From contig CAZCRK010000001.1 of the NCBI GenBank assembly GCA_964501035.1, forward strand, positions 1-64,000: a stretch of 64,000 nt of DNA. The letters run 5' to 3'. A model generated the notes under the pieces. That model did no database searches, was not told the DNA's origin, and worked only from the letters and a program-made list of their open reading frames with translations. The first letter of the stretch is position 1; the number at the start of each line of letters is the position of its first letter. This document shows positions 13,880-22,204 of the stretch, piece by piece. The position numbers were made by a program, and so were the translations under genes.

Positions 13880-14788
13880 ATGCTAAACAGATTTAAACTT
13901 TCAATAATTGTATTACTACTTCCACTTTTTGTTCTAAATTGTGGCTATTTAGGTCTCTCAAAATCAACAAAAAAAGAGACAAATACCGAAGAGAAACAAG
14001 AAAAAGCAAAACCAAAACCAGCCGGAAGTAAAAAATCAATAAAAAAAGAGACTCAAAAACCTATTAATGAGAGTGATATGCAGACTATCATTGATGATTT
14101 GAGTATTGAAATTAAAAAACTTCAAGCAAATCAAGCCCGTAATCAAGATCAAATTGATGAACTCAAAGCACAAGCTGCAATTTGGGGAAACCCCTTTTCT
14201 ATATTTAACAAAGAAATTCTGTTAGATAACGGAACAACCGTTTATGGCAAGATAACCTATCAAGATACAGATTTGATAAAAGTAGAAACATTGATTGGTA
14301 CGCTAACTATTGATCGAAAAACGGTTATAAGAGTTGTAGAAAATACAACATCTTTAGAACCCGTTCAGGGTGAAGAAACAACTGAAAACGAAATTGTCCT
14401 CTCTGAAGAAACACCAGTTGTTGAAAGCGGTGTGGACTTAATTGAACGTCGGCAGGGCGGGCCAGTTGCAAACCTTATATTAATGGGTACAATTTCAGAA
14501 AACAAGGATAGTTCCGGCAACACCTCACTAACAGGTGAAATCAAAAATATTGGCACACATCGTGCAGATTTTGCTAAAATTAATTTTATAATCCGACAAA
14601 ATTGGTCAGGTCAAACCAAAACATTAACTGCATTTGTTAAAGGGTCATATCATACATTTGATTCAGATATCACATCAGATTCAAGCATTATGCCAGGTGA
14701 AACAGCGACCTTTGAGCTTATCATTCCAAGTGGTTTTGGCTCATTTATTGGATACTCGTATACCATAGATTGGGAGCAATATGATTAA
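13880..14788 (+). CDS. Putative lipoprotein with coiled coil and C-terminal Ig-like (FxLYD/DUF3426-like) domain; first gene of motor operon
   Basis: Signal peptide ending VLNC; Lys-rich linker; coiled coil; LTGEIKNIG...IMPGETATFEL beta-sandwich pattern. Confidence 0.6.
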   Translation: MLNRFKLSIIVLLLPLFVLNCGYLGLSKSTKKETNTEEKQEKAKPKPAGSKKSIKKETQKPINESDMQTIIDDLSIEIKKLQANQARNQDQIDELKAQAAIWGNPFSIFNKEILLDNGTTVYGKITYQDTDLIKVETLIGTLTIDRKTVIRVVENTTSLEPVQGEETTENEIVLSEETPVVESGVDLIERRQGGPVANLILMGTISENKDSSGNTSLTGEIKNIGTHRADFAKINFIIRQNWSGQTKTLTAFVKGSYHTFDSDITSDSSIMPGETATFELIIPSGFGSFIGYSYTIDWEQYD

Positions 14789-15395
14789 CCCGCGATTTGG
14801 ACATCTTGTCCTTTACGTGATATTGTTGGGCTTTGTTTTTTCAAAGGATGTTATTTTATGGGATTTGGGTATTGTAATTTCAGATAATCCCCCAAATACT
14901 AATATTCATCAACCAGACGAAACTCTAATTATTAAAGAAAAACAATTGGGTGTGATATCATCACCAATGCAAGCTTCTGTTCATAAAATAGAAAACAATT
15001 TAGTTTCCGCTACAACAGCTAAATCACAAAGTCAATCATTGAGTGAAACAAACCAGCCAACACCATCATTTAAAAACGCAAAACAAGCAGTGTTAAAAGG
15101 TAAATATATAGAAGCACTTGATATTTTTAATTTAATAGATGCAAATTCAATTCAGATTTTAACTTGGCATGTTACTGCATTGGATAGATTAGACAAGCAT
15201 AAAGAAGCGCTTCAATTAATTGAAACATCAAATTTTATGAATGATAAAGTACTTTTTATGAAGGGGCAACTCTTGAGTTCAGCAGAAAATGTTCCAGCAG
15301 CCTTGGATTGTTTTAGGGGGCTGGTGGCTGAATATCCTCAAAGTGATTATTTAGCAAGTGCAAAAATTCAAATTTCTATGTTGGAGAAGAAATGA
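14781..15395 (+). CDS. Exported TPR-repeat protein (CpoB/BamD-like C-terminus)
   Basis: Signal peptide; C-terminal LFMKGQLL...FRGLVAEYPQSDY TPR pattern; overlaps both neighbours. Confidence 0.65.
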   Translation: MINPRFGHLVLYVILLGFVFSKDVILWDLGIVISDNPPNTNIHQPDETLIIKEKQLGVISSPMQASVHKIENNLVSATTAKSQSQSLSETNQPTPSFKNAKQAVLKGKYIEALDIFNLIDANSIQILTWHVTALDRLDKHKEALQLIETSNFMNDKVLFMKGQLLSSAENVPAALDCFRGLVAEYPQSDYLASAKIQISMLEKK

Positions 15396-16735
15396 ATCTT
15401 AAAACGTTATATTATTTTGGACTACTTTTAACGTTAACATTTGCAAACTCACGCGTATCGTTCTCTAGACCCGGTTCTATGATGAGTATTCCAGGATACT
15501 CACTATCTGAGACAGATAATTTGTTTTCTGTTGGGATTGCAACAGAAATAGTGGATTTAAATGAATCTAATCAATCAACATCTGCATATTTTAATTCAAT
15601 TACTAACTCGGGTGTTGGGCTTGGCCTTTCTGTTGTTCAACATGCCAACCCATTTTCGCCTATTGATGAAGACTTTGCCAATTATGAACCCACGACAGAA
15701 GTGGGTATCCATTTTCAAAAAAAGGTATATTCTTATGGCAATGTAAAAATTGATTTAGGTGTTCAAGATGTAATTTATGAAAGTGAATCCACCAATAATA
15801 CATTATCTCTTTTTGCAAATTTTTCTAGTCATAAAGAGTTTGATAATTTTGCACTAACATCATTATTGGGGTTCGGAACAGGTAAAATATCGAATGACCC
15901 TCAAAATTTTGCAAACACAAATGGTGAAGATGAAGAAAGTTCATCGGGTGTTTTCTTGGGCTTTCATCTGAATACTCCATATCTCAAAAATAATGGTGGT
16001 GTTAACATTATTGCAGAATATGATGGCCAAGGTGTAAATATGGGATGTGAAATTCCTCTTACATCAGAATACAGAGTTGGTCTAGGAATTACAAATTTTC
16101 AAAACTTAAGTGAGTTTGGCACCCAAGGAGATACTGAAGCTGAAGACAGATCTCTTCTTGCAGATGCTCCAGCAATTTCATTTGGAATTAGTATGAACAT
16201 TCCTCGAATTAAATCATCATTTGATGAGACATCAGGCCCCATTAGCAACTCATACGAATTGCCAGAAGACTTAGTATCAGCAGAACATGCCTATAAGCAA
16301 GCTGGAGATATTATTGCAAATTTAAGAGACTCTCTTAAGGTTGCTCAATTTGAGCTTGATAACATATCAGATTCAAATATTAACTTAGCTCAAAAAACGC
16401 ATGTTTTAGAAGATTCAACAAGAAAACATTATCTAGATGTACAGATTTCAAAATCAAATTTAAACGCAGCTATGCGACATCTTTCAAAATCACTTCGATT
16501 ATTTTATGAGCAAGAATATAAAGAAGCTTTAAAAGAAGCGAATCGAGCAATTGAGTTAAACCCAGAATTAGCGATTGCTTATGCGCGAAAAGGGTCTATT
16601 TATTTCAAACTTGGCGATCAACAACGAGCAACTATTAATTGGAATATAGCACTTAAACTTGATCCGGAATATAGTGAAGTGAGAGATATGTTGCAGGCGA
16701 TCAAGGAAAACAGATTGCGTTCAGTAGAATTATAA
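15392..16735 (+). CDS. Predicted outer-membrane beta-barrel (YjbH-like) fused to coiled coil and C-terminal TPRs
   Basis: Signal peptide; amphipathic beta-strands (FSVGIAT, LGLSVV, VFLGFHL, IIAEYDGQGVNMG, ISFGISMNIP); coiled coil; TPRs (AIELNPELAIAYARKGSIY, ALKLDPEY). Confidence 0.6.
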   Translation: MNLKTLYYFGLLLTLTFANSRVSFSRPGSMMSIPGYSLSETDNLFSVGIATEIVDLNESNQSTSAYFNSITNSGVGLGLSVVQHANPFSPIDEDFANYEPTTEVGIHFQKKVYSYGNVKIDLGVQDVIYESESTNNTLSLFANFSSHKEFDNFALTSLLGFGTGKISNDPQNFANTNGEDEESSSGVFLGFHLNTPYLKNNGGVNIIAEYDGQGVNMGCEIPLTSEYRVGLGITNFQNLSEFGTQGDTEAEDRSLLADAPAISFGISMNIPRIKSSFDETSGPISNSYELPEDLVSAEHAYKQAGDIIANLRDSLKVAQFELDNISDSNINLAQKTHVLEDSTRKHYLDVQISKSNLNAAMRHLSKSLRLFYEQEYKEALKEANRAIELNPELAIAYARKGSIYFKLGDQQRATINWNIALKLDPEYSEVRDMLQAIKENRLRSVEL

Positions 16736-16745
16736 AGGGGAAACA

Positions 16746-17549
16746 ATGGATTTAGCCACAATATTAGGATTGTTTACGGGACTAGGGCTCATAGTAAGTG
16801 CTGTGTTTGTTCAGTCTTCAGGTAATGATGCCTTAGGACTTGTTGATTTTTATGATACTGCAAGCTTATTGATAGTTTTGGGTGGAACCTTAGCTGCAAC
16901 TGCAGTTGCTTTTAGGTTAGCCGAGGTAAAACGTGTAATTTTTCTAATAAAACTAGTATTTCAAAAACCTAATTTTAATTTTAAAGAAATCGTAGAAGAT
17001 ATTGTTCGCTTAACAGAAGTAAATAGAAGTTCAGGCATCAAGGGTTTAGAGGACGAAATATCCAAAACCAATGACCCCTTTTTACGTGATGGAATTGAGT
17101 TTATCACCTATGGATATTCACTTGAAGATATCAAAGATATCCTTGTTCAAAGAGAACAATTTCGCTTTAAAAAAGAATCCCATGAATCTGATATGATTAA
17201 AACATTGGGAACATATTCACCTGCTTTTGGAATGATTGGAACGCTCATTGGCTTAGTTTTAATGTTAAAAGGAATGGGTGCCGGAGATAGTGGCGGAATG
17301 GAAACCCTAGCTTCTTCAATGGCTGTTGCTTTGGTTACAACATTTTACGGTACTTTTTTTGCCAATTTAATATTTAATCCTTTTGCAGAAAAGATTAAAT
17401 CACGCAACAAAGACAATAGCCAAAAAGCAAAATTAATTATTGAAGGTGTGTGTCTTATTCAACAAAAAATACACCCAATTCAAGTACGAGATAAAGTAAA
17501 CTATTGTATTTCACCTGCAGAGCGTAAAACAGATGACGGATCTAAATAA
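16746..17549 (+). CDS. motA: Flagellar-type stator subunit A (MotA/PomA family)
   Basis: MDLATILG, LIVLGGT, PFLRDGIE, PAFGMIGTLIGLVLML, MAVALVTTFYG, ANLIFNP, IIEGV. Confidence 0.92.
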   Translation: MDLATILGLFTGLGLIVSAVFVQSSGNDALGLVDFYDTASLLIVLGGTLAATAVAFRLAEVKRVIFLIKLVFQKPNFNFKEIVEDIVRLTEVNRSSGIKGLEDEISKTNDPFLRDGIEFITYGYSLEDIKDILVQREQFRFKKESHESDMIKTLGTYSPAFGMIGTLIGLVLMLKGMGAGDSGGMETLASSMAVALVTTFYGTFFANLIFNPFAEKIKSRNKDNSQKAKLIIEGVCLIQQKIHPIQVRDKVNYCISPAERKTDDGSK

Positions 17550-18270
17550 TCAAATAGAAGAACAATCTTCCGGAGAAACTCAGTCGTGGTTAATGACCTA
17601 CGCAGATATGATGACGCTTTTGTTTGCATTCTTTGTATTATTGTATTCAATGTCATCTCCTGATCCAGTAAAAGTTTCTCAAATGCAAGAAGCGGTTGCT
17701 AAAGATAAAGGTCTTACAACTGATGATAGTGAAAGTGTTCGAGAAGAGTTAAAATCTCAAAGTGAGATTCATGAAGAATTTAAAGACATTGTTGAAGATT
17801 TAAATCTTGAAGACGTAGCATCTGTAACACATGATCAACGTGGTGCTGCTATTGAGTTAAATGGTGACTTTTGTTTTGCTTCAGGGAGTACGGATCTTCA
17901 TGAAACATTGGTTGAGCTATTAGATAATGTTGCTGAACGATTACTATCAAATAAAAATGATTATAGACAGGTCATTGTTGAAGGGCATACAGACAATGAA
18001 CCAATTCCTGGGAAATTAAGATTAAAATATCCAACAAACTGGGAATTATCTGCGTCAAGAGCATCAATTGTAGTAAATTATCTTATTAATAAATCGGTAA
18101 TGTCTGGTAGATTAGTTGCTTCTGGCTATGCAGATAGATGGCCGGTTGAGGCGAGTTGGCATGATGTAAGAAGTGGCAAACTTGATGAAAACTTGATTGC
18201 CTCATTTAATAATACAACGGAACAGAAACGTAAAAATAGACGAATAAAAATTATTTTTTCAAAAAATTGA
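17533..18270 (+). CDS. motB: Flagellar-type stator subunit B (MotB/PomB family)
   Basis: WLMTYADMMTLLFAFFVLLYSMS with conserved Asp; OmpA-like peptidoglycan-binding domain (VEGHTD, NWELSASRA, KNRRI). Confidence 0.92.
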   Translation: MTDLNNQIEEQSSGETQSWLMTYADMMTLLFAFFVLLYSMSSPDPVKVSQMQEAVAKDKGLTTDDSESVREELKSQSEIHEEFKDIVEDLNLEDVASVTHDQRGAAIELNGDFCFASGSTDLHETLVELLDNVAERLLSNKNDYRQVIVEGHTDNEPIPGKLRLKYPTNWELSASRASIVVNYLINKSVMSGRLVASGYADRWPVEASWHDVRSGKLDENLIASFNNTTEQKRKNRRIKIIFSKN

Positions 18271-18295
18271 AACAAAGTAGGAGCTAATAGTAAAC

Positions 18296-19651
18296 ATGCT
18301 AAATAAAATGAAACATTTAATCTTTTCATTGTTGTTTTTGGTGCCGCTTATCAGCCAAGATACACATTATTTAACAAGTAAAATTGCAATTGAAACATCT
18401 ATACAAGATAAAATTACGTTTGCCATAAATAGAATTATGGATAGATCTGATTTTGTCGTCATGGTAAATGTTGGAATGCAAAAGGGGTATTCACTGAGCT
18501 CATCCGAGAAAACCCAACCTACACCCGATTCTGGTTCATTACAAAACACTTCAAATTCATCGGGCTACACACCTATTCCGGGACTACTTCCAACCGTACC
18601 AAATACAGATGCAACAGTGAATGATAATGCGCAACCAAACCCCAATACGTCAACATATATTTCTGGTTCTAATGGATATCAACTAACTCGTGTTGATATT
18701 GCAGTATATTTGGAAGAGTCTAAGGCTACTGCTGGAGCACAACAAAATATTGAACGACTTATTAGAGAAACTGTACCAGAAACTGCAAATTGTTTTGATT
18801 GCATTCGGTTTGAAACTATGCGCTTTAAAAAAGAAGATGGGAAATCAGAAAATTATAAAGAATTGTTGGCTAAAATTGAAGAACTTGAAAAAGAAAGAAT
18901 TGATGCAGAAAAACAAATTTCTAATTGGAAGTTCGACCAACTCGAAGAACAACTAGCTTCTGCTGAAGACGCTCGGAAAGAATGGGAAGAGCAAGCTAGA
19001 CGAAGAGAATATATTCAATATTTACAAGATTCTACAAGAATGGCTAATCTTGAAGCATTTGAAGTAACACAAAGGGCCAAACAAGATTCACTATTAAAAG
19101 AAACAACATTAAAATTAGATACATCCATAAGCGGGAGGATTGAATCTGAATCCAACACAAAAGATGATTTAATTGATTTGTTAAAATTACAAATCACAAA
19201 CGGCACATTACCTGAAAGCGACGAGTCAGCTACAAACGGATTGTTGGGTATGAAGAAATCAACTCCTTCATCTTCAAATATATTACTTTATGTGTTAATT
19301 GCTGTATTAGGTGTTGCACTGTTGTTCTTATTTTTTCACAAAAAACAACCCCAACCAATATATTTAAAACCAAAGAAGAAACCTGCACCGCAGCCTGAGG
19401 TAGCACCACAACCAGCTGTACAAAAAGAAACACCCAAACCTCAGCCTGTTGAGTCCAATTTAAATCCAACAAGTGCAGATGAAAATGATGATGTAATGCG
19501 TGCTGAAATTAAATCTATTCGCCAATCAGCCGTTTCCATGAGCGTGGGTCAAAAAGAGGGCGCAACCTCAATTGTAAAAGATTGGCTTGATGATACTCCT
19601 TCACCAGAAGCTGATTCAAGCAATGACACTGACGATAAGGATAAGCAATGA
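18296..19651 (+). CDS. Reduced FliF-like ring protein (signal peptide, RBM3-like domain, coiled coil, single TM, FliG-binding-like tail)
   Basis: IETSIQDKI..VVMVNV...LTRVDIAVYLEE...NIERLIRETV resembles the split FliF RBM3/SpoIIIAG domain; TM NILLYVLIAVLGVALLFLFF; tail QKEGATSIVKDWL resembles the FliF C-terminal WL motif; stop overlaps fliG start. Confidence 0.6.
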   Translation: MLNKMKHLIFSLLFLVPLISQDTHYLTSKIAIETSIQDKITFAINRIMDRSDFVVMVNVGMQKGYSLSSSEKTQPTPDSGSLQNTSNSSGYTPIPGLLPTVPNTDATVNDNAQPNPNTSTYISGSNGYQLTRVDIAVYLEESKATAGAQQNIERLIRETVPETANCFDCIRFETMRFKKEDGKSENYKELLAKIEELEKERIDAEKQISNWKFDQLEEQLASAEDARKEWEEQARRREYIQYLQDSTRMANLEAFEVTQRAKQDSLLKETTLKLDTSISGRIESESNTKDDLIDLLKLQITNGTLPESDESATNGLLGMKKSTPSSSNILLYVLIAVLGVALLFLFFHKKQPQPIYLKPKKKPAPQPEVAPQPAVQKETPKPQPVESNLNPTSADENDDVMRAEIKSIRQSAVSMSVGQKEGATSIVKDWLDDTPSPEADSSNDTDDKDKQ

Positions 19652-20580
19652 TGACCTTGCAAGAAAATTTAACCGGACTAGATAAAGCAGCTATTTTGTT
19701 TCAAGTTTTGGGCGAATCATTAGCGCTTACATTATTTCGAGATATTCCAGAGTCAGATATTTTACGCATTCGTGTTAGGTCAAGAGAATTGCGACACATT
19801 TCTATATTGTTAAAAAAATCAGTATTAGAAGAATATTATTTTAAAATGATGTCAGATAAATATAGAAATAATAATAAAAAAGAAACAGGCAAGTTGTTTG
19901 GTTTTTTAGATGAATTAACAAATGAACAAATCCAATATTTACTTGCAAACGAATCTACTCGAGTTGTTGCTTTAGCAACAGATCAATTATCAGAGGATCG
20001 AAAGACAGCTTTCCTTTCAAAATTAGATTCAGAAGAAACCAATGAAATAATTTTTGAGTATGGCAATTTATCTGATATTCCATTAGAGGCAGTTGTAAGT
20101 ATTGCCAACGAATTAAAGAAAAAAGTAACCTTCTTACCTGAACCAAAGGAATTTTCAAGAGGTGGTGGTAAAAGTATTGCAAATATTTTGGGGAATATGT
20201 CTTCTGATGAAGCAGAACAGTATTTAGTAAAAATTAGTCAAGAAGACCCTGAACTGTATGCTGAAGTAAAAAAATATTTCATTACATTTGATGATTTATT
20301 AGATATGCCAGAACATATTATGAGCGAATTTTGGATGAATCCCGATATTGACATTGATGCTTTAGCGAAAGCGCTAAAAGGCTTAGACGAAGACGAAGTG
20401 AAATCTATTGTTGAATATTTACCAAAACGCAAACAGGCTATGTTTACACCTGTTGAAAAACCACTATCTAAAAAAGAGGTGGAAAATGCTCAGCTATCAA
20501 TAGTTGAATTGGCACGAGCAATGGAAAAAGAGGGAAACCTTGATATTGAAGATATTCTCGGCGGCGAATTAATAGAATAA
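19648..20580 (+). CDS. fliG: Rotor protein FliG homolog (divergent)
   Basis: FliG-N LTGLDKAAIL..LG; GG linker (RGGGKSIANIL); DPELYAEVKKYFITFDDL; C-terminal KALKG and EVENAQLSIV..ARAMEKEG. Confidence 0.85.
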   Translation: MMTLQENLTGLDKAAILFQVLGESLALTLFRDIPESDILRIRVRSRELRHISILLKKSVLEEYYFKMMSDKYRNNNKKETGKLFGFLDELTNEQIQYLLANESTRVVALATDQLSEDRKTAFLSKLDSEETNEIIFEYGNLSDIPLEAVVSIANELKKKVTFLPEPKEFSRGGGKSIANILGNMSSDEAEQYLVKISQEDPELYAEVKKYFITFDDLLDMPEHIMSEFWMNPDIDIDALAKALKGLDEDEVKSIVEYLPKRKQAMFTPVEKPLSKKEVENAQLSIVELARAMEKEGNLDIEDILGGELIE

Positions 20581-20600
20581 TTTTAGATAAAAATGCAAAA

Positions 20601-20630
20601 TAAAAAAGGCACCATTTGGTGCCTTTTTTA
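20601..20630. terminator. Bidirectional intrinsic terminator ending the motor operon
   Basis: TAAAAAAGGCACCA-tt-TGGTGCCTTTTTTA between convergent genes. Confidence 0.85.
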
Positions 20631-20639
20631 TACTAACAA

Positions 20640-20680
20640 AATCTGTTAATCTGTTAATCTGTTCTTCTGTTAATTTGTTA
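20640..20680. repeat. Short tandem repeat, 8-bp unit (AATCTGTT) x about 5, degenerate
   Basis: aatctgtt aatctgtt aatctgtt cttctgtt aatttgtt. Confidence 0.7.
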
Positions 20681-22204
20681 TGGTGTTAATATAACATTCA
20701 CTAACAATACCACGTCCAGTACATTTAATGCTCCATCACCATTCATATCTGAACATGCATCATAATTATCTGGACAGTCTGCACACAATATCATATTTAC
20801 TGTAAGCACAACATCTAAAACATTGAGGGTATTGTCGCCATTTGAATCGCCCAACAGACACTCAGATCCACCACCATACGTAAAATCTAAACTAGTTGTA
20901 AAGCTCTCATCATCACCATCACTAAACGAGAATGTTGCCGTATAGTCACCGTCAGTTAGTCCAAGATCACTTAATGGCAAAACAAACTCTGCACCGATGC
21001 CATATTCATGACTTAGTGGTATCATTAAATGACTGGTTCCATTCACTGAAACCAAGCGTTCAACAACCAAATTTGTGTCTGCATCTGAGTAAGTTACTCG
21101 GAGTTCATTTAACTCGCTATTATAATATGCATCCGTTAAAATTGGTAGTGTATTACCGTCTTGAAATTGTGTACTTAACAGCATTAATCCAGGTGTGGTT
21201 TCGTCTAATATCTCAGTTGCAACCTCTGTACCATTTAATCCTGCTTCAATCGTCATACCCGTTGTAATAATTCCACCGTAGGAGTTTGGCCAAACACCCC
21301 AATCAGTATCATTCACAATATAGCTTTGCATCAAAGTAGTATGAAGAGTATTACCAGACACATTATAACTAATATTTGTGGTTACATAATCAAAAGATTC
21401 AATTTCACCAGTATCTAAGTTTCCAACAATTTTTATAAGACCAGGCGTTAATTGCCCAAAGCCACCATCTCCATATCCTACCGCATAGGCAACTGGAGCT
21501 TCAGACTCAGGGTTTACAATACCAACACCATATAAATACCATGGACCAAACAGACCACCTTCATCGCAGCAACCACCATTCATTGAAATAGACAGATAAA
21601 ACCTATCATCGTTATATGTACCTCTTACTGAATAAATATCTTGATCTGATGGTGCATCACCAGTTGGCTCATCAGTTAATTCTTGCAATAAATTTTCACC
21701 CGGTGGCCAGTTTCCACCAACATTTTTCGGTGTTTGAGTAACATACATACTTTCGTATTCTACGCCAAATCCTGTACCATCAACTATACCTGTAATATAG
21801 TATGCAACATTATCACCACCATTTGTGGATGCGGTACAATCCCAAGTATTTTCATACCCTACATCATCCATTTCAAAACACGTTGCATCTACCCAAGATG
21901 ATTGTCCATTTGTTGAAACATGAGCCACTGCTGTTGGATTAGCTTCTAACAATTCTTCTGATACATCTGCCTGTACTACAAACTCTTCTCGCGGCGCAGA
22001 TGATGAAAGATTCTCTAAAAAGTCCTCACGTGATTGGTTTTGTACGGCTTTAAAATCACTTCGTGCTTTCATTGCTTGGTCATAAATTTTTTGCATCATT
22101 TGATGCATAGCCTCTCGACCTATTGCCTCATTTTCTGGTGTTTCAGCGGTTATTAACGACAAAGATAAAATGGTTATCATGCCATAAAACATCCATTTTT
22201 TCAT
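20678..22204 (-). CDS. Secreted acidic protein with C-terminal dockerin type I domain
   Basis: Signal peptide; duplicated Ca-binding repeats GDSNGDNTLNVLDVV and SDMNGDGALNVLDVV. Confidence 0.8.
   Translation of the reverse strand: MKKWMFYGMITILSLSLITAETPENEAIGREAMHQMMQKIYDQAMKARSDFKAVQNQSREDFLENLSSSAPREEFVVQADVSEELLEANPTAVAHVSTNGQSSWVDATCFEMDDVGYENTWDCTASTNGGDNVAYYITGIVDGTGFGVEYESMYVTQTPKNVGGNWPPGENLLQELTDEPTGDAPSDQDIYSVRGTYNDDRFYLSISMNGGCCDEGGLFGPWYLYGVGIVNPESEAPVAYAVGYGDGGFGQLTPGLIKIVGNLDTGEIESFDYVTTNISYNVSGNTLHTTLMQSYIVNDTDWGVWPNSYGGIITTGMTIEAGLNGTEVATEILDETTPGLMLLSTQFQDGNTLPILTDAYYNSELNELRVTYSDADTNLVVERLVSVNGTSHLMIPLSHEYGIGAEFVLPLSDLGLTDGDYTATFSFSDGDDESFTTSLDFTYGGGSECLLGDSNGDNTLNVLDVVLTVNMILCADCPDNYDACSDMNGDGALNVLDVVLLVNVILTP

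Follow-up and report, generated by a model that had tools for sequence, protein, structure and literature searches.

The proteins FliG, FliF and MotAB are familiar as components of a single machine, the flagellum, whose motor core comprises the FliF MS-ring, FliG and stator units of the MotA5B2 or PomA5B2 type. Among the other ion-driven systems of the cell envelope, Tol-Pal (TolQRA, TolB, Pal, CpoB/YbgF) combines a 5:2 stator and a long periplasmic helix with a lipoprotein of the outer membrane (OM) and proteins of the TPR_6 type (TPR, tetratricopeptide repeat), and TonB-ExbB-ExbD delivers ion-motive energy from the inner membrane to an OM barrel. GldLM and Agl-Glt share their design logic, an inner-membrane stator, a periplasm-spanning element, OM TPR proteins, lipoproteins and barrels, with the locus described here; to our knowledge neither of them uses a FliG or FliF homologue. 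In this study, a seven-gene cassette (g1–g7) was analyzed within the first 64,000 nucleotides (hereafter the window) of contig CAZCRK010000001.1 of assembly GCA_964501035.1. The window belongs to a metagenome-assembled genome (MAG) of SAR406/Marinimicrobia with 1.87 Mb in 167 contigs and 95.7% completeness; the phylum is named Marinimicrobia or Neomarinimicrobiota (SAR406) in record titles, and Fidelibacterota in the Atlas. From sequence and structure models we consider it probable that the operon encodes a motor that spans the envelope, does not depend on a flagellum, consists of paralogues of flagellar rotor and stator proteins and works by the general mechanism proposed below. The gene set, envelope genes included, is conserved as one block in the phylum, both in genomes that also encode a true flagellum and in genomes that do not.

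The cassette consists of seven plus-strand open reading frames (ORFs) that span 13880–20580 and are followed by a hairpin terminator, in agreement with the preliminary description of this stretch as seven co-oriented, overlapping or nearly adjacent genes closed by a terminator:

13880–14788, + strand, g1, OM-type lipoprotein, 302 amino acids (aa)
14781–15395, + strand, g2, degenerate TPR protein in a variable slot, 204 aa
15392–16735, + strand, g3, predicted OM beta-barrel (12 strands) with a long helix and a C-terminal TPR
16746–17549, + strand, g4, MotA stator subunit of flagellar type, 267 aa
17533–18270, + strand, g5, MotB stator subunit, 245 aa
18296–19651, + strand, g6, putative cut-down FliF, 451 aa
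19648–20580, + strand, g7, FliG paralogue, 310 aa
20600–20631, no strand, hairpin terminator with a 14-pair stem (5 GC pairs), a 4-base loop, and A and T runs on each side

The junctions are overlaps of 8, 4, 17 and 4 base pairs (bp) and gaps of 10 and 25 bp, the last of the overlaps being that between the stop of g6 and the start of g7. All four motor proteins of the cassette are homologous to the flagellar motor core, and the ring gene is directly followed by fliG, as in the canonical fliF–fliG pair. Unlike the flagellar core, the cassette has an OM barrel-TPR protein and a lipoprotein as operon partners, and the export gate, rod, hook, filament and FliM/FliN were not found in the window genome.

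The stator genes were assigned by domain and by full-length comparison. The MotA_ExbB channel domain was detected in g4 (PF01618, E 1.8e-23, 83.1 bits), and the solved Clostridium MotA (8ucs/6ysf) matched g4 over its full length at E 2e-42 (g4 residues 3–261 aligned to 8ucs), while TolQ matched at only 6.5e-5 in the PDB search. The R and LE of its cytoplasmic loop, which we take to be the FliG-contacting charges of MotA, align with identical residues in solved MotA. In g5, the MotB plug (PF13677, E 1e-17, 63.9 bits) and an OmpA-type domain of the peptidoglycan-binding type (PF00691, E 1.8e-15, 57.5 bits) were found, and the transmembrane (TM) segment carries an Asp within the motif TYADMM that is presumably the counterpart of the MotB ion-binding Asp.

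Similarly, all three FliG domains of g7 passed the Pfam cutoffs: the N domain (PF14842) at 50.3 bits (4e-13), the M domain (PF14841) at 34.9 bits (1.8e-8) and the C domain (PF01706) at 69.0 bits (4.9e-19), so that the MotA, MotB and FliG identities proposed in the preliminary description are all borne out by Pfam domains. The closest PDB match of g7 is Thermotoga maritima FliG (1lkv, 3.5e-15), and the Gly-Gly hinge is kept. The EHPQ(R) site in the middle domain of FliG is the binding site for FliM. At the position of EHPQ in 1lkv, g7 reads ESTR, and only the Glu is invariant among the FliG paralogues, whereas one of the canonical FliGs of the phylum retains EHPQ and the other has ENPQ. An alignment with these canonical FliGs showed 26% identity, and the cassette FliG further differs from them by the absence of about 26 residues from the linker of the N and M domains and, in the window clade, by a 4-residue deletion in the C-terminal helix, where Arg/Lys are kept. 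When relatives of greater length, as expected of fusions, were sought for the FliG paralogue, none turned up, which is weak evidence. In one distant locus (L018), the FliG paralogue has a 34-residue N-terminal extension, depending on the start codon.

The ring protein g6 is named as a whole by no family library (Pfam, NCBIfam). It comprises a signal or first TM helix, a domain resembling the third ring-building motif (RBM3) of FliF at about residues 25–178 with a disordered insert at 66–124, a helix at 184–300, a TM helix at 327–348 and a tail at 398–432. An AlphaFold2 model made with 43 sequences reached a mean pLDDT (predicted local distance difference test) of 68, and its confident parts are an alpha-beta-(loop 66–124)-beta-alpha-beta domain, the 117-residue helix 184–300 (pLDDT mostly >90), the TM helix and two tail helices; a single RBM is present in the model. 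The layout is common to the g6 orthologues, in which a signal or TM helix, a helix-strand unit, a low-complexity loop with an invariant Pro-Gly, a strand-helix-strand unit and the long helix are followed by the TM helix, an invariant YLKPK motif and a strongly conserved C-terminal peptide.

Structure comparison placed g6 next to FliF. In a Foldseek search against the PDB, FliF MS-ring chains occupied 18 of the first 20 ranks (best E 5.6e-4), and in a VIA-align comparison with 48,161 chains FliF was on top with Z scores of 12.2, 11.6 and 10.7 (root-mean-square deviation, rmsd, 2.2–2.5 Å over 97–102 residues), with PrgK, EscJ and SpoIIIAG lower at Z 7.8–8.5. These ring proteins of type III secretion (SctJ/PrgK/EscJ) and sporulation (SpoIIIAG) have the same alpha-beta-beta-alpha-beta fold as g6, and SpoIIIAG shares with FliF RBM3 and g6 an insert between strands; however, besides their lower Z, they have neither a FliG-binding tail nor a stator partner. 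Further, an exhaustive profile search among 1.84 billion proteins gave 379 representatives of the g6 family at E<=1e-3, the best 150 of which were inspected. Ten divergent members were picked from this search (E 3.2e-33 to 2.4e-18), and 9 of them were matched by PF08345, the family of the FliF M-ring with RBM3 and collar, 8 above cutoff and mostly across the whole profile. As for the spread outside the phylum, 10 of the 11 named relatives of a divergent high-GC member are from this phylum and one is labelled Calditrichaeota; 2 of the 11 carry an automatic FliF-related annotation.

The tail of g6 also resembles FliF. Canonical FliF sequences were taken from two flagellated members of the phylum, and the tail could be aligned with their C-termini, ending in "...KEGATSIVKDWLDD" as compared with "...SPEATSLLRSWLMED" in the canonical FliF of one flagellated genome. 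We conclude from the modelled fold and the divergent family members that g6 is probably a cut-down FliF. It keeps only RBM3, has the 117-residue helix where FliF is linked to the membrane by a short segment, and ends with a TM helix and a tail of FliF type. The absence of RBM1 and RBM2 and the presence of the long helix between RBM3 and the membrane are thus its differences from flagellar FliF.

Some further features of the g6 family were observed. A CxxC motif (C166 and C169; g6 residues 166–169, window 18791–18802) in the periplasmic RBM domain is invariant in 43 of the 43 aligned g6 proteins of the class and may form a disulfide or bind a metal. In the divergent high-GC members it is missing, and '...RGD...' stands at this position. 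The g6 orthologues of other classes (L016–L021) measure 389–630 aa, as compared with 451 aa, and most of the added length falls into the loop and the helix. Short g6 copies in the loci L006 and L009 were considered as signs of decay and this was rejected, the former being due to a masked run and the latter to ambiguous bases; the short copy of L014 has X in its translations.

The three envelope genes upstream of the stator were then characterized. Since the Cys that follows the signal peptide of g1 (Cys21) is invariant in 14 of 14 orthologues, g1 is regarded as a lipoprotein. Cys21 is followed by a linker of low complexity and a short coiled coil, and then by two beta-rich domains that are conserved. 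No Pfam family matched g1, its sole NCBIfam match is a weak one to the N-terminal domain of Leptospira LA_0442 (25 bits, cutoff 43), and its neighbours in the Atlas are only hypothetical proteins of Fidelibacterota. The AlphaFold2 model of g3 contains 12 strands (residues ~45–270), a 94-residue helix (296–389) and a TPR (392–438). Nearly all of the 34 PDB matches that Foldseek returned for it at E<=1e-3 are OM barrels (target TM-score 0.73–0.76 for KdgM), and VIA-align ranked KdgM at Z 16.2 (rmsd 2.6 Å, 166 residues), NanC at 14.5 and FapF at 14.3. The C-terminal part was supported by TPR matches of residues 390–443 at Z ~8 and by a TPR_2 match in Pfam (31.9 bits, cutoff 27). Therefore, the lipoprotein, the barrel-TPR protein and the FliF-like protein named in the preliminary description are supported by the invariant Cys and the fold searches, respectively.

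The TPR assignment of g2 held only in part. Window g2 gave sub-threshold YfiO/TPR matches in Pfam (E 0.011–0.085), and E 2.4e-4 and 0.041 with the BamD and YbgF models of NCBIfam, and among the nine close loci that extend over its position it was detected in 5. Each of the six distant genomes has one or two ORFs in the slot, 10 in total. All 10 exceed the TPR_6 cutoff (E 4.7e-10 to 3.6e-19); with the BamD-like YfiO model, 4 are above the cutoff and 8 at E <= 0.01. Hence, g2 is a variable component with 0–2 copies and not a fixed one.

The absence of other flagellar and chemotaxis genes, claimed for the window in the preliminary description, holds beyond it. In the assembled window genome no match was found for the export gate proteins FlhA (PF00771) and FliP (PF00813), for YscJ_FliF (PF01514), for the rod and flagellin families Flg_bb_rod (PF00460) and Flagellin_N (PF00669), or for the switch proteins FliM/FliN (FliMN_C, PF01052), while these six families were all matched in four flagellated control genomes. 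CheW was likewise not matched in the window genome, with a positive control in eight genomes. This genome-wide search had been set beforehand as a refuting test, and with its controls positive it found no flagellar set elsewhere. The only FliG_C match of the genome is g7. Three MotA_ExbB matches were found, in the cassette, in an ExbB-ExbD-ExbD-TonB cluster and in a second MotA/MotB pair.

The last two were located on other contigs. The second pair, also of flagellar type (271 and 220 aa), lies on the minus strand of contig C16 (L004:722–2196), downstream of eno (enolase) and an ftsB/ftsL-like gene. It is 29% identical to the cassette pair, and 14 of 41 genomes of the class contain clear orthologues (E <= 2.7e-57); a single rotor might be served by both stator types. 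The ordinary ExbB/TolQ-ExbD-ExbD-TonB cluster lies on the minus strand of contig C31 (L002:2–2061), downstream of an S41 C-terminal processing peptidase gene, and is a Ton-type system separate from the cassette. The cassette itself differs from a TonB system in that it encodes no TonB-like protein and that g3 is 12-stranded, without the 22-strand fold of TonB-dependent receptors, although both would deliver energy from the inner membrane to an OM barrel.

To determine how widely the genes stay together, their linkage was compared in related genomes. The close set comprised 11 loci found with FliG, 9 of which span the g1–g3 end and 2 of which are cut upstream. Wherever the contig reaches, g1, g3, MotA, MotB and g6 are present, and the core order is kept in 9 of 9 loci. 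As the flanks of these close loci are also syntenic, they alone would not prove a functional linkage. The order g1–(TPR genes)–g3–MotA–MotB–g6–FliG was also kept in all of the six distant genomes (6/6), where the cassette has different flanks. Thus, of the linkage of three upstream genes that had been anticipated, that of g1 and g3 was confirmed in both sets (9/9 close and 6/6 distant loci), while g2, with its 0–2 copies, is variable.

Across 151 genomes sampled evenly from the phylum, FliG_C was found in 111, the g6 family in 96 and FlhA in 39 (38 over cutoff). Cross-tabulated by hand, 25 of the 38 FlhA-positive genomes also carry g6, and 71 g6-positive genomes are without FlhA. Flagellated carriers have two FliG genes, of which the paralogue adjoins g6 and the canonical one adjoins a FliF of 520–534 aa, followed by ORFs in the positions of fliH and fliI (named by position only). 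Because 25 of the 38 FlhA-positive genomes carry both systems, the cassette is regarded as a separate paralogous system and not as a flagellar relic. Together with the absence of flagellar genes and the fixed linkage, the co-occurrence supported the proposal of the preliminary description that the locus encodes a stripped-down machine independent of the flagellum.

Based on these results, a mechanism is proposed. The FliF-like g6 would form a ring in the inner membrane via its RBM3 domain, and its tail would dock onto the N domain of FliG, so that a FliG ring would lie beneath the membrane. Peptidoglycan-anchored MotA5B2 units, driven by H+ or Na+, would push the C domain of FliG and thereby turn the ring. 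The motor should be switchless, since no FliM/FliN and no CheW were found and the EHPQ site is lost. The 117-residue helix of each g6 subunit would take the place of a rod and, at 0.15 nm per residue, could extend for about 17 nm and hold the RBM3 ring far out in the periplasm, where it may come into contact with g3 (at its long helix and TPR), with the lipoprotein g1 and with the TPR proteins encoded in the g2 slot. Work would in this way be delivered to the OM, either by gating or driving the g3 barrel, or by moving or tensioning an OM complex. We favour such a task within the envelope over locomotion, since small planktonic genomes in which neither chemotaxis nor flagellar genes are seen retain the cassette. 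A fuller version, in which a working rotary motor of FliG and mini-FliF drives a periplasm-spanning helix cage on the OM barrel, and in which this motor is an old sister lineage of the flagellar rotor and not a recent cut-down copy, seems doubtful to us.

Several observations weigh against the proposed motor. On the side of g6, PF01514 (YscJ_FliF, RBM1/RBM2) did not match g6, PF08345 reached only 17.3 bits (cutoff 23.8) on its excised N-terminal 195 aa and matched none of 9 full-length close orthologues, a profile search of the PDB returned only coiled-coil noise (E >= 0.35), and an hhalign comparison of the family profile with one canonical FliF was not significant (probability 1.2%, for a stretch at FliF 233–267). 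As these sequence routes from the window g6 failed, its FliF identity rests on the fold and on the divergent family members. On the side of the other motor proteins, NCBIfam equivalog cutoffs were missed by g4 and g5 (best scores MotP 180 vs. 394 and MotD 139 vs. 283; the MotA, PomA, MotS and MotB models also below) as well as by g7 (TIGR00207, 96.4 bits vs. 226.7); since all equivalog cutoffs were missed, g4, g5 and g7 are considered divergent members. The mean pLDDT of the g3 model, 61, indicates modest confidence. A look-up of RNA runs listed none that contains the stretch.

The contacts within the motor were also weighed. The charged residues of the C-terminal 'torque' helix of FliG are the contact site for the stator. 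Its acidic 'EDE' is lost in the window clade, while 4 of 6 distant FliG paralogues retain it in the canonical form ('R...EDE'); with this loss and the deletion in the same helix, the textbook charge pairing of stator and rotor may not apply. Complexes of the FliF tail with the FliG N domain have been solved. For the same pairing in the cassette, which had been suggested for modelling, a complex prediction of the g6 tail with FliG residues 1–95 scored 0.47, as compared with 0.01 for the best of three controls, and its runs agreed in at least 63% of contacts with a partner pLDDT of at least 60. Of 157 solved complexes, 116 came up to the mark used, as did 2 of 215 mismatched pairs; passes at 0.60 or less comprise only 18 of the 157 solved complexes and both of the passing mismatches. 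Hence the support is weak, and as FliF-tail/FliG_N complexes are already solved, the pass may reflect likeness only. We infer ring formation, rotation, the contact of g6 with g1–g3 and the role of these envelope proteins as the load, which the preliminary description had put forward with caution as well.

Finally, the cassette was not found in 55 of the 151 genomes, among them all 7 of family f7 and all 22 of lineage g30, and is therefore not indispensable to the phylum. The seven f7 genomes (genus g9) measure ~0.8–1.1 Mb at 95–99% completeness and gave no match for FliG, g6, FlhA, the second MotA or TolB. The cassette is thus dispensable in this most reduced lineage.

The alternative that survives best, although we hold it to be rather unlikely, is a Tol-Pal-like maintenance of the envelope without continuous rotation, in which the stator and FliG would pull or cycle the g6 helix and so tether or constrict the OM via g1, the TPR proteins and the barrel, as a stand-in for Tol-Pal. 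The parts are indeed parallel, with a stator of 5:2 type, a long periplasmic helix carried by an inner-membrane protein, an OM lipoprotein and, in the g2 slot, proteins of TPR_6 (10/10) or BamD-like (YfiO 4/10) type, the window g2 having its E 0.041 match to YbgF. Neither TolB (best 109 bits, cutoff 343) nor Pal (best 25 bits, cutoff 125; the only matches at E<=0.001 being the two MotBs) was over its cutoff in the window genome, and TolB was found in only 9 of the 151 genomes, all of one family (f21), so that the phylum seems largely without canonical Tol-Pal; the retention of the cassette in small planktonic genomes would fit such a role as well. However, the distributions are not complementary, as the cassette occurs in 6 of the 9 TolB-positive genomes, and the cassette-free lineages f7 and g30 are also without TolB. 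The cassette stator is of the MotAB and not of the TolQR type, and its energy route through a cytoplasmic FliG and a ring-building domain bears the hallmarks of a rotor, whereas Tol and Ton systems use contacts between TM helices. The membrane orientation of g6, with its TM helix C-terminal, is also opposite to that of TolA.

A motor for surface movement, that is, for gliding or for transport of adhesins along the cell as by GldLM in Bacteroidota or Agl-Glt in Myxococcus, is quite improbable. Such a role could be suggested by the design logic shared with these systems (ion-driven stator, periplasm-spanning element, TPR proteins and OM barrels), by the secreted dockerin protein encoded next to the cassette, which is syntenic in close relatives, and by the lifestyle of SAR406, many members of which are thought to be particle-associated. 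However, the dockerin gene is unlinked in the distant genomes (no tblastn match, 6 loci), and the conserved core contains no adhesin or track gene. In addition, the only cultured member of the phylum, which may or may not carry the cassette, is described as non-motile in PMC11652737. That the proposed motor is instead a relic or accessory of a true flagellum, either left over from its loss or a second rotor and stator set in need of flagellar parts, is highly improbable: although the four motor genes all descend from flagellar ones, the phylum has flagellated members (FlhA over cutoff in 38/151) and flagellar absence is not proven by a MAG in 167 contigs, the ORFs are intact and conserved in 96 of 151 genomes (71 without FlhA), flagellated genomes have their own fliF–fliG–fliH–fliI (the latter two by position) besides the cassette, identity between the paralogue and the canonical FliG of the phylum is as low as 26%, the linkage to non-flagellar envelope genes is fixed, and the short g6 copies of L006 and L009 are not products of decay.

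The surroundings of the cassette are unrelated to a motor, as the preliminary description had stated for panD and the dockerin gene. The flanking genes panD, panB and panC were identified with Pfam at E 4e-52, 6e-110 and 8e-98, respectively. Downstream lies the gene of a secreted 508-aa protein with a C-terminal dockerin domain (PF00404, 24.4 bits, cutoff 22.9):

20678–22204, − strand, secreted dockerin protein

The terminator hairpin sits between this gene and the convergent g7 and is common to both, and a pyruvate phosphate dikinase gene follows beyond the dockerin gene, which adjoins the cassette in 11 of 11 close loci. The GC content is even throughout the region, at 0.32–0.36, and a promoter scan gave 30 promoter-like matches as compared with 30.6 expected, which is not above chance. 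One close locus, L014 (NZNP01000075.1), is titled 'Gammaproteobacteria bacterium'; it shows the same panB–panD–cassette–dockerin synteny as the Marinimicrobia records, with 53–61% protein identity, and the 'Gammaproteobacteria' label of this bin is probably wrong.

No description of the cassette was found in the open-access literature of PMC and bioRxiv, including the passages of PMC13277936, PMC11652737 and PMC1586193. We class the cassette as a proposed motor that derives from flagellar components and has a new architecture and a new putative output. Few bacterial groups of the dark ocean are as abundant as SAR406, in which a flagellar rotor-stator module would be retained for another task, whether or not the genome also encodes a true flagellum. 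If the ring turns, the flagellar rotor and stator would work apart from the export apparatus, the rod and the switch, which would bear on the evolution of the motor, and a new output would be added to the family of 5:2 ion-driven motors that includes Ton, Tol, GldLM and Zorya. If the reading as a sister lineage were true, the cassette would be a living rotor-stator module without type III export, such as models of flagellar origin require. For the phylum itself, which has a cultured representative, the cassette may explain part of the envelope biology of SAR406.

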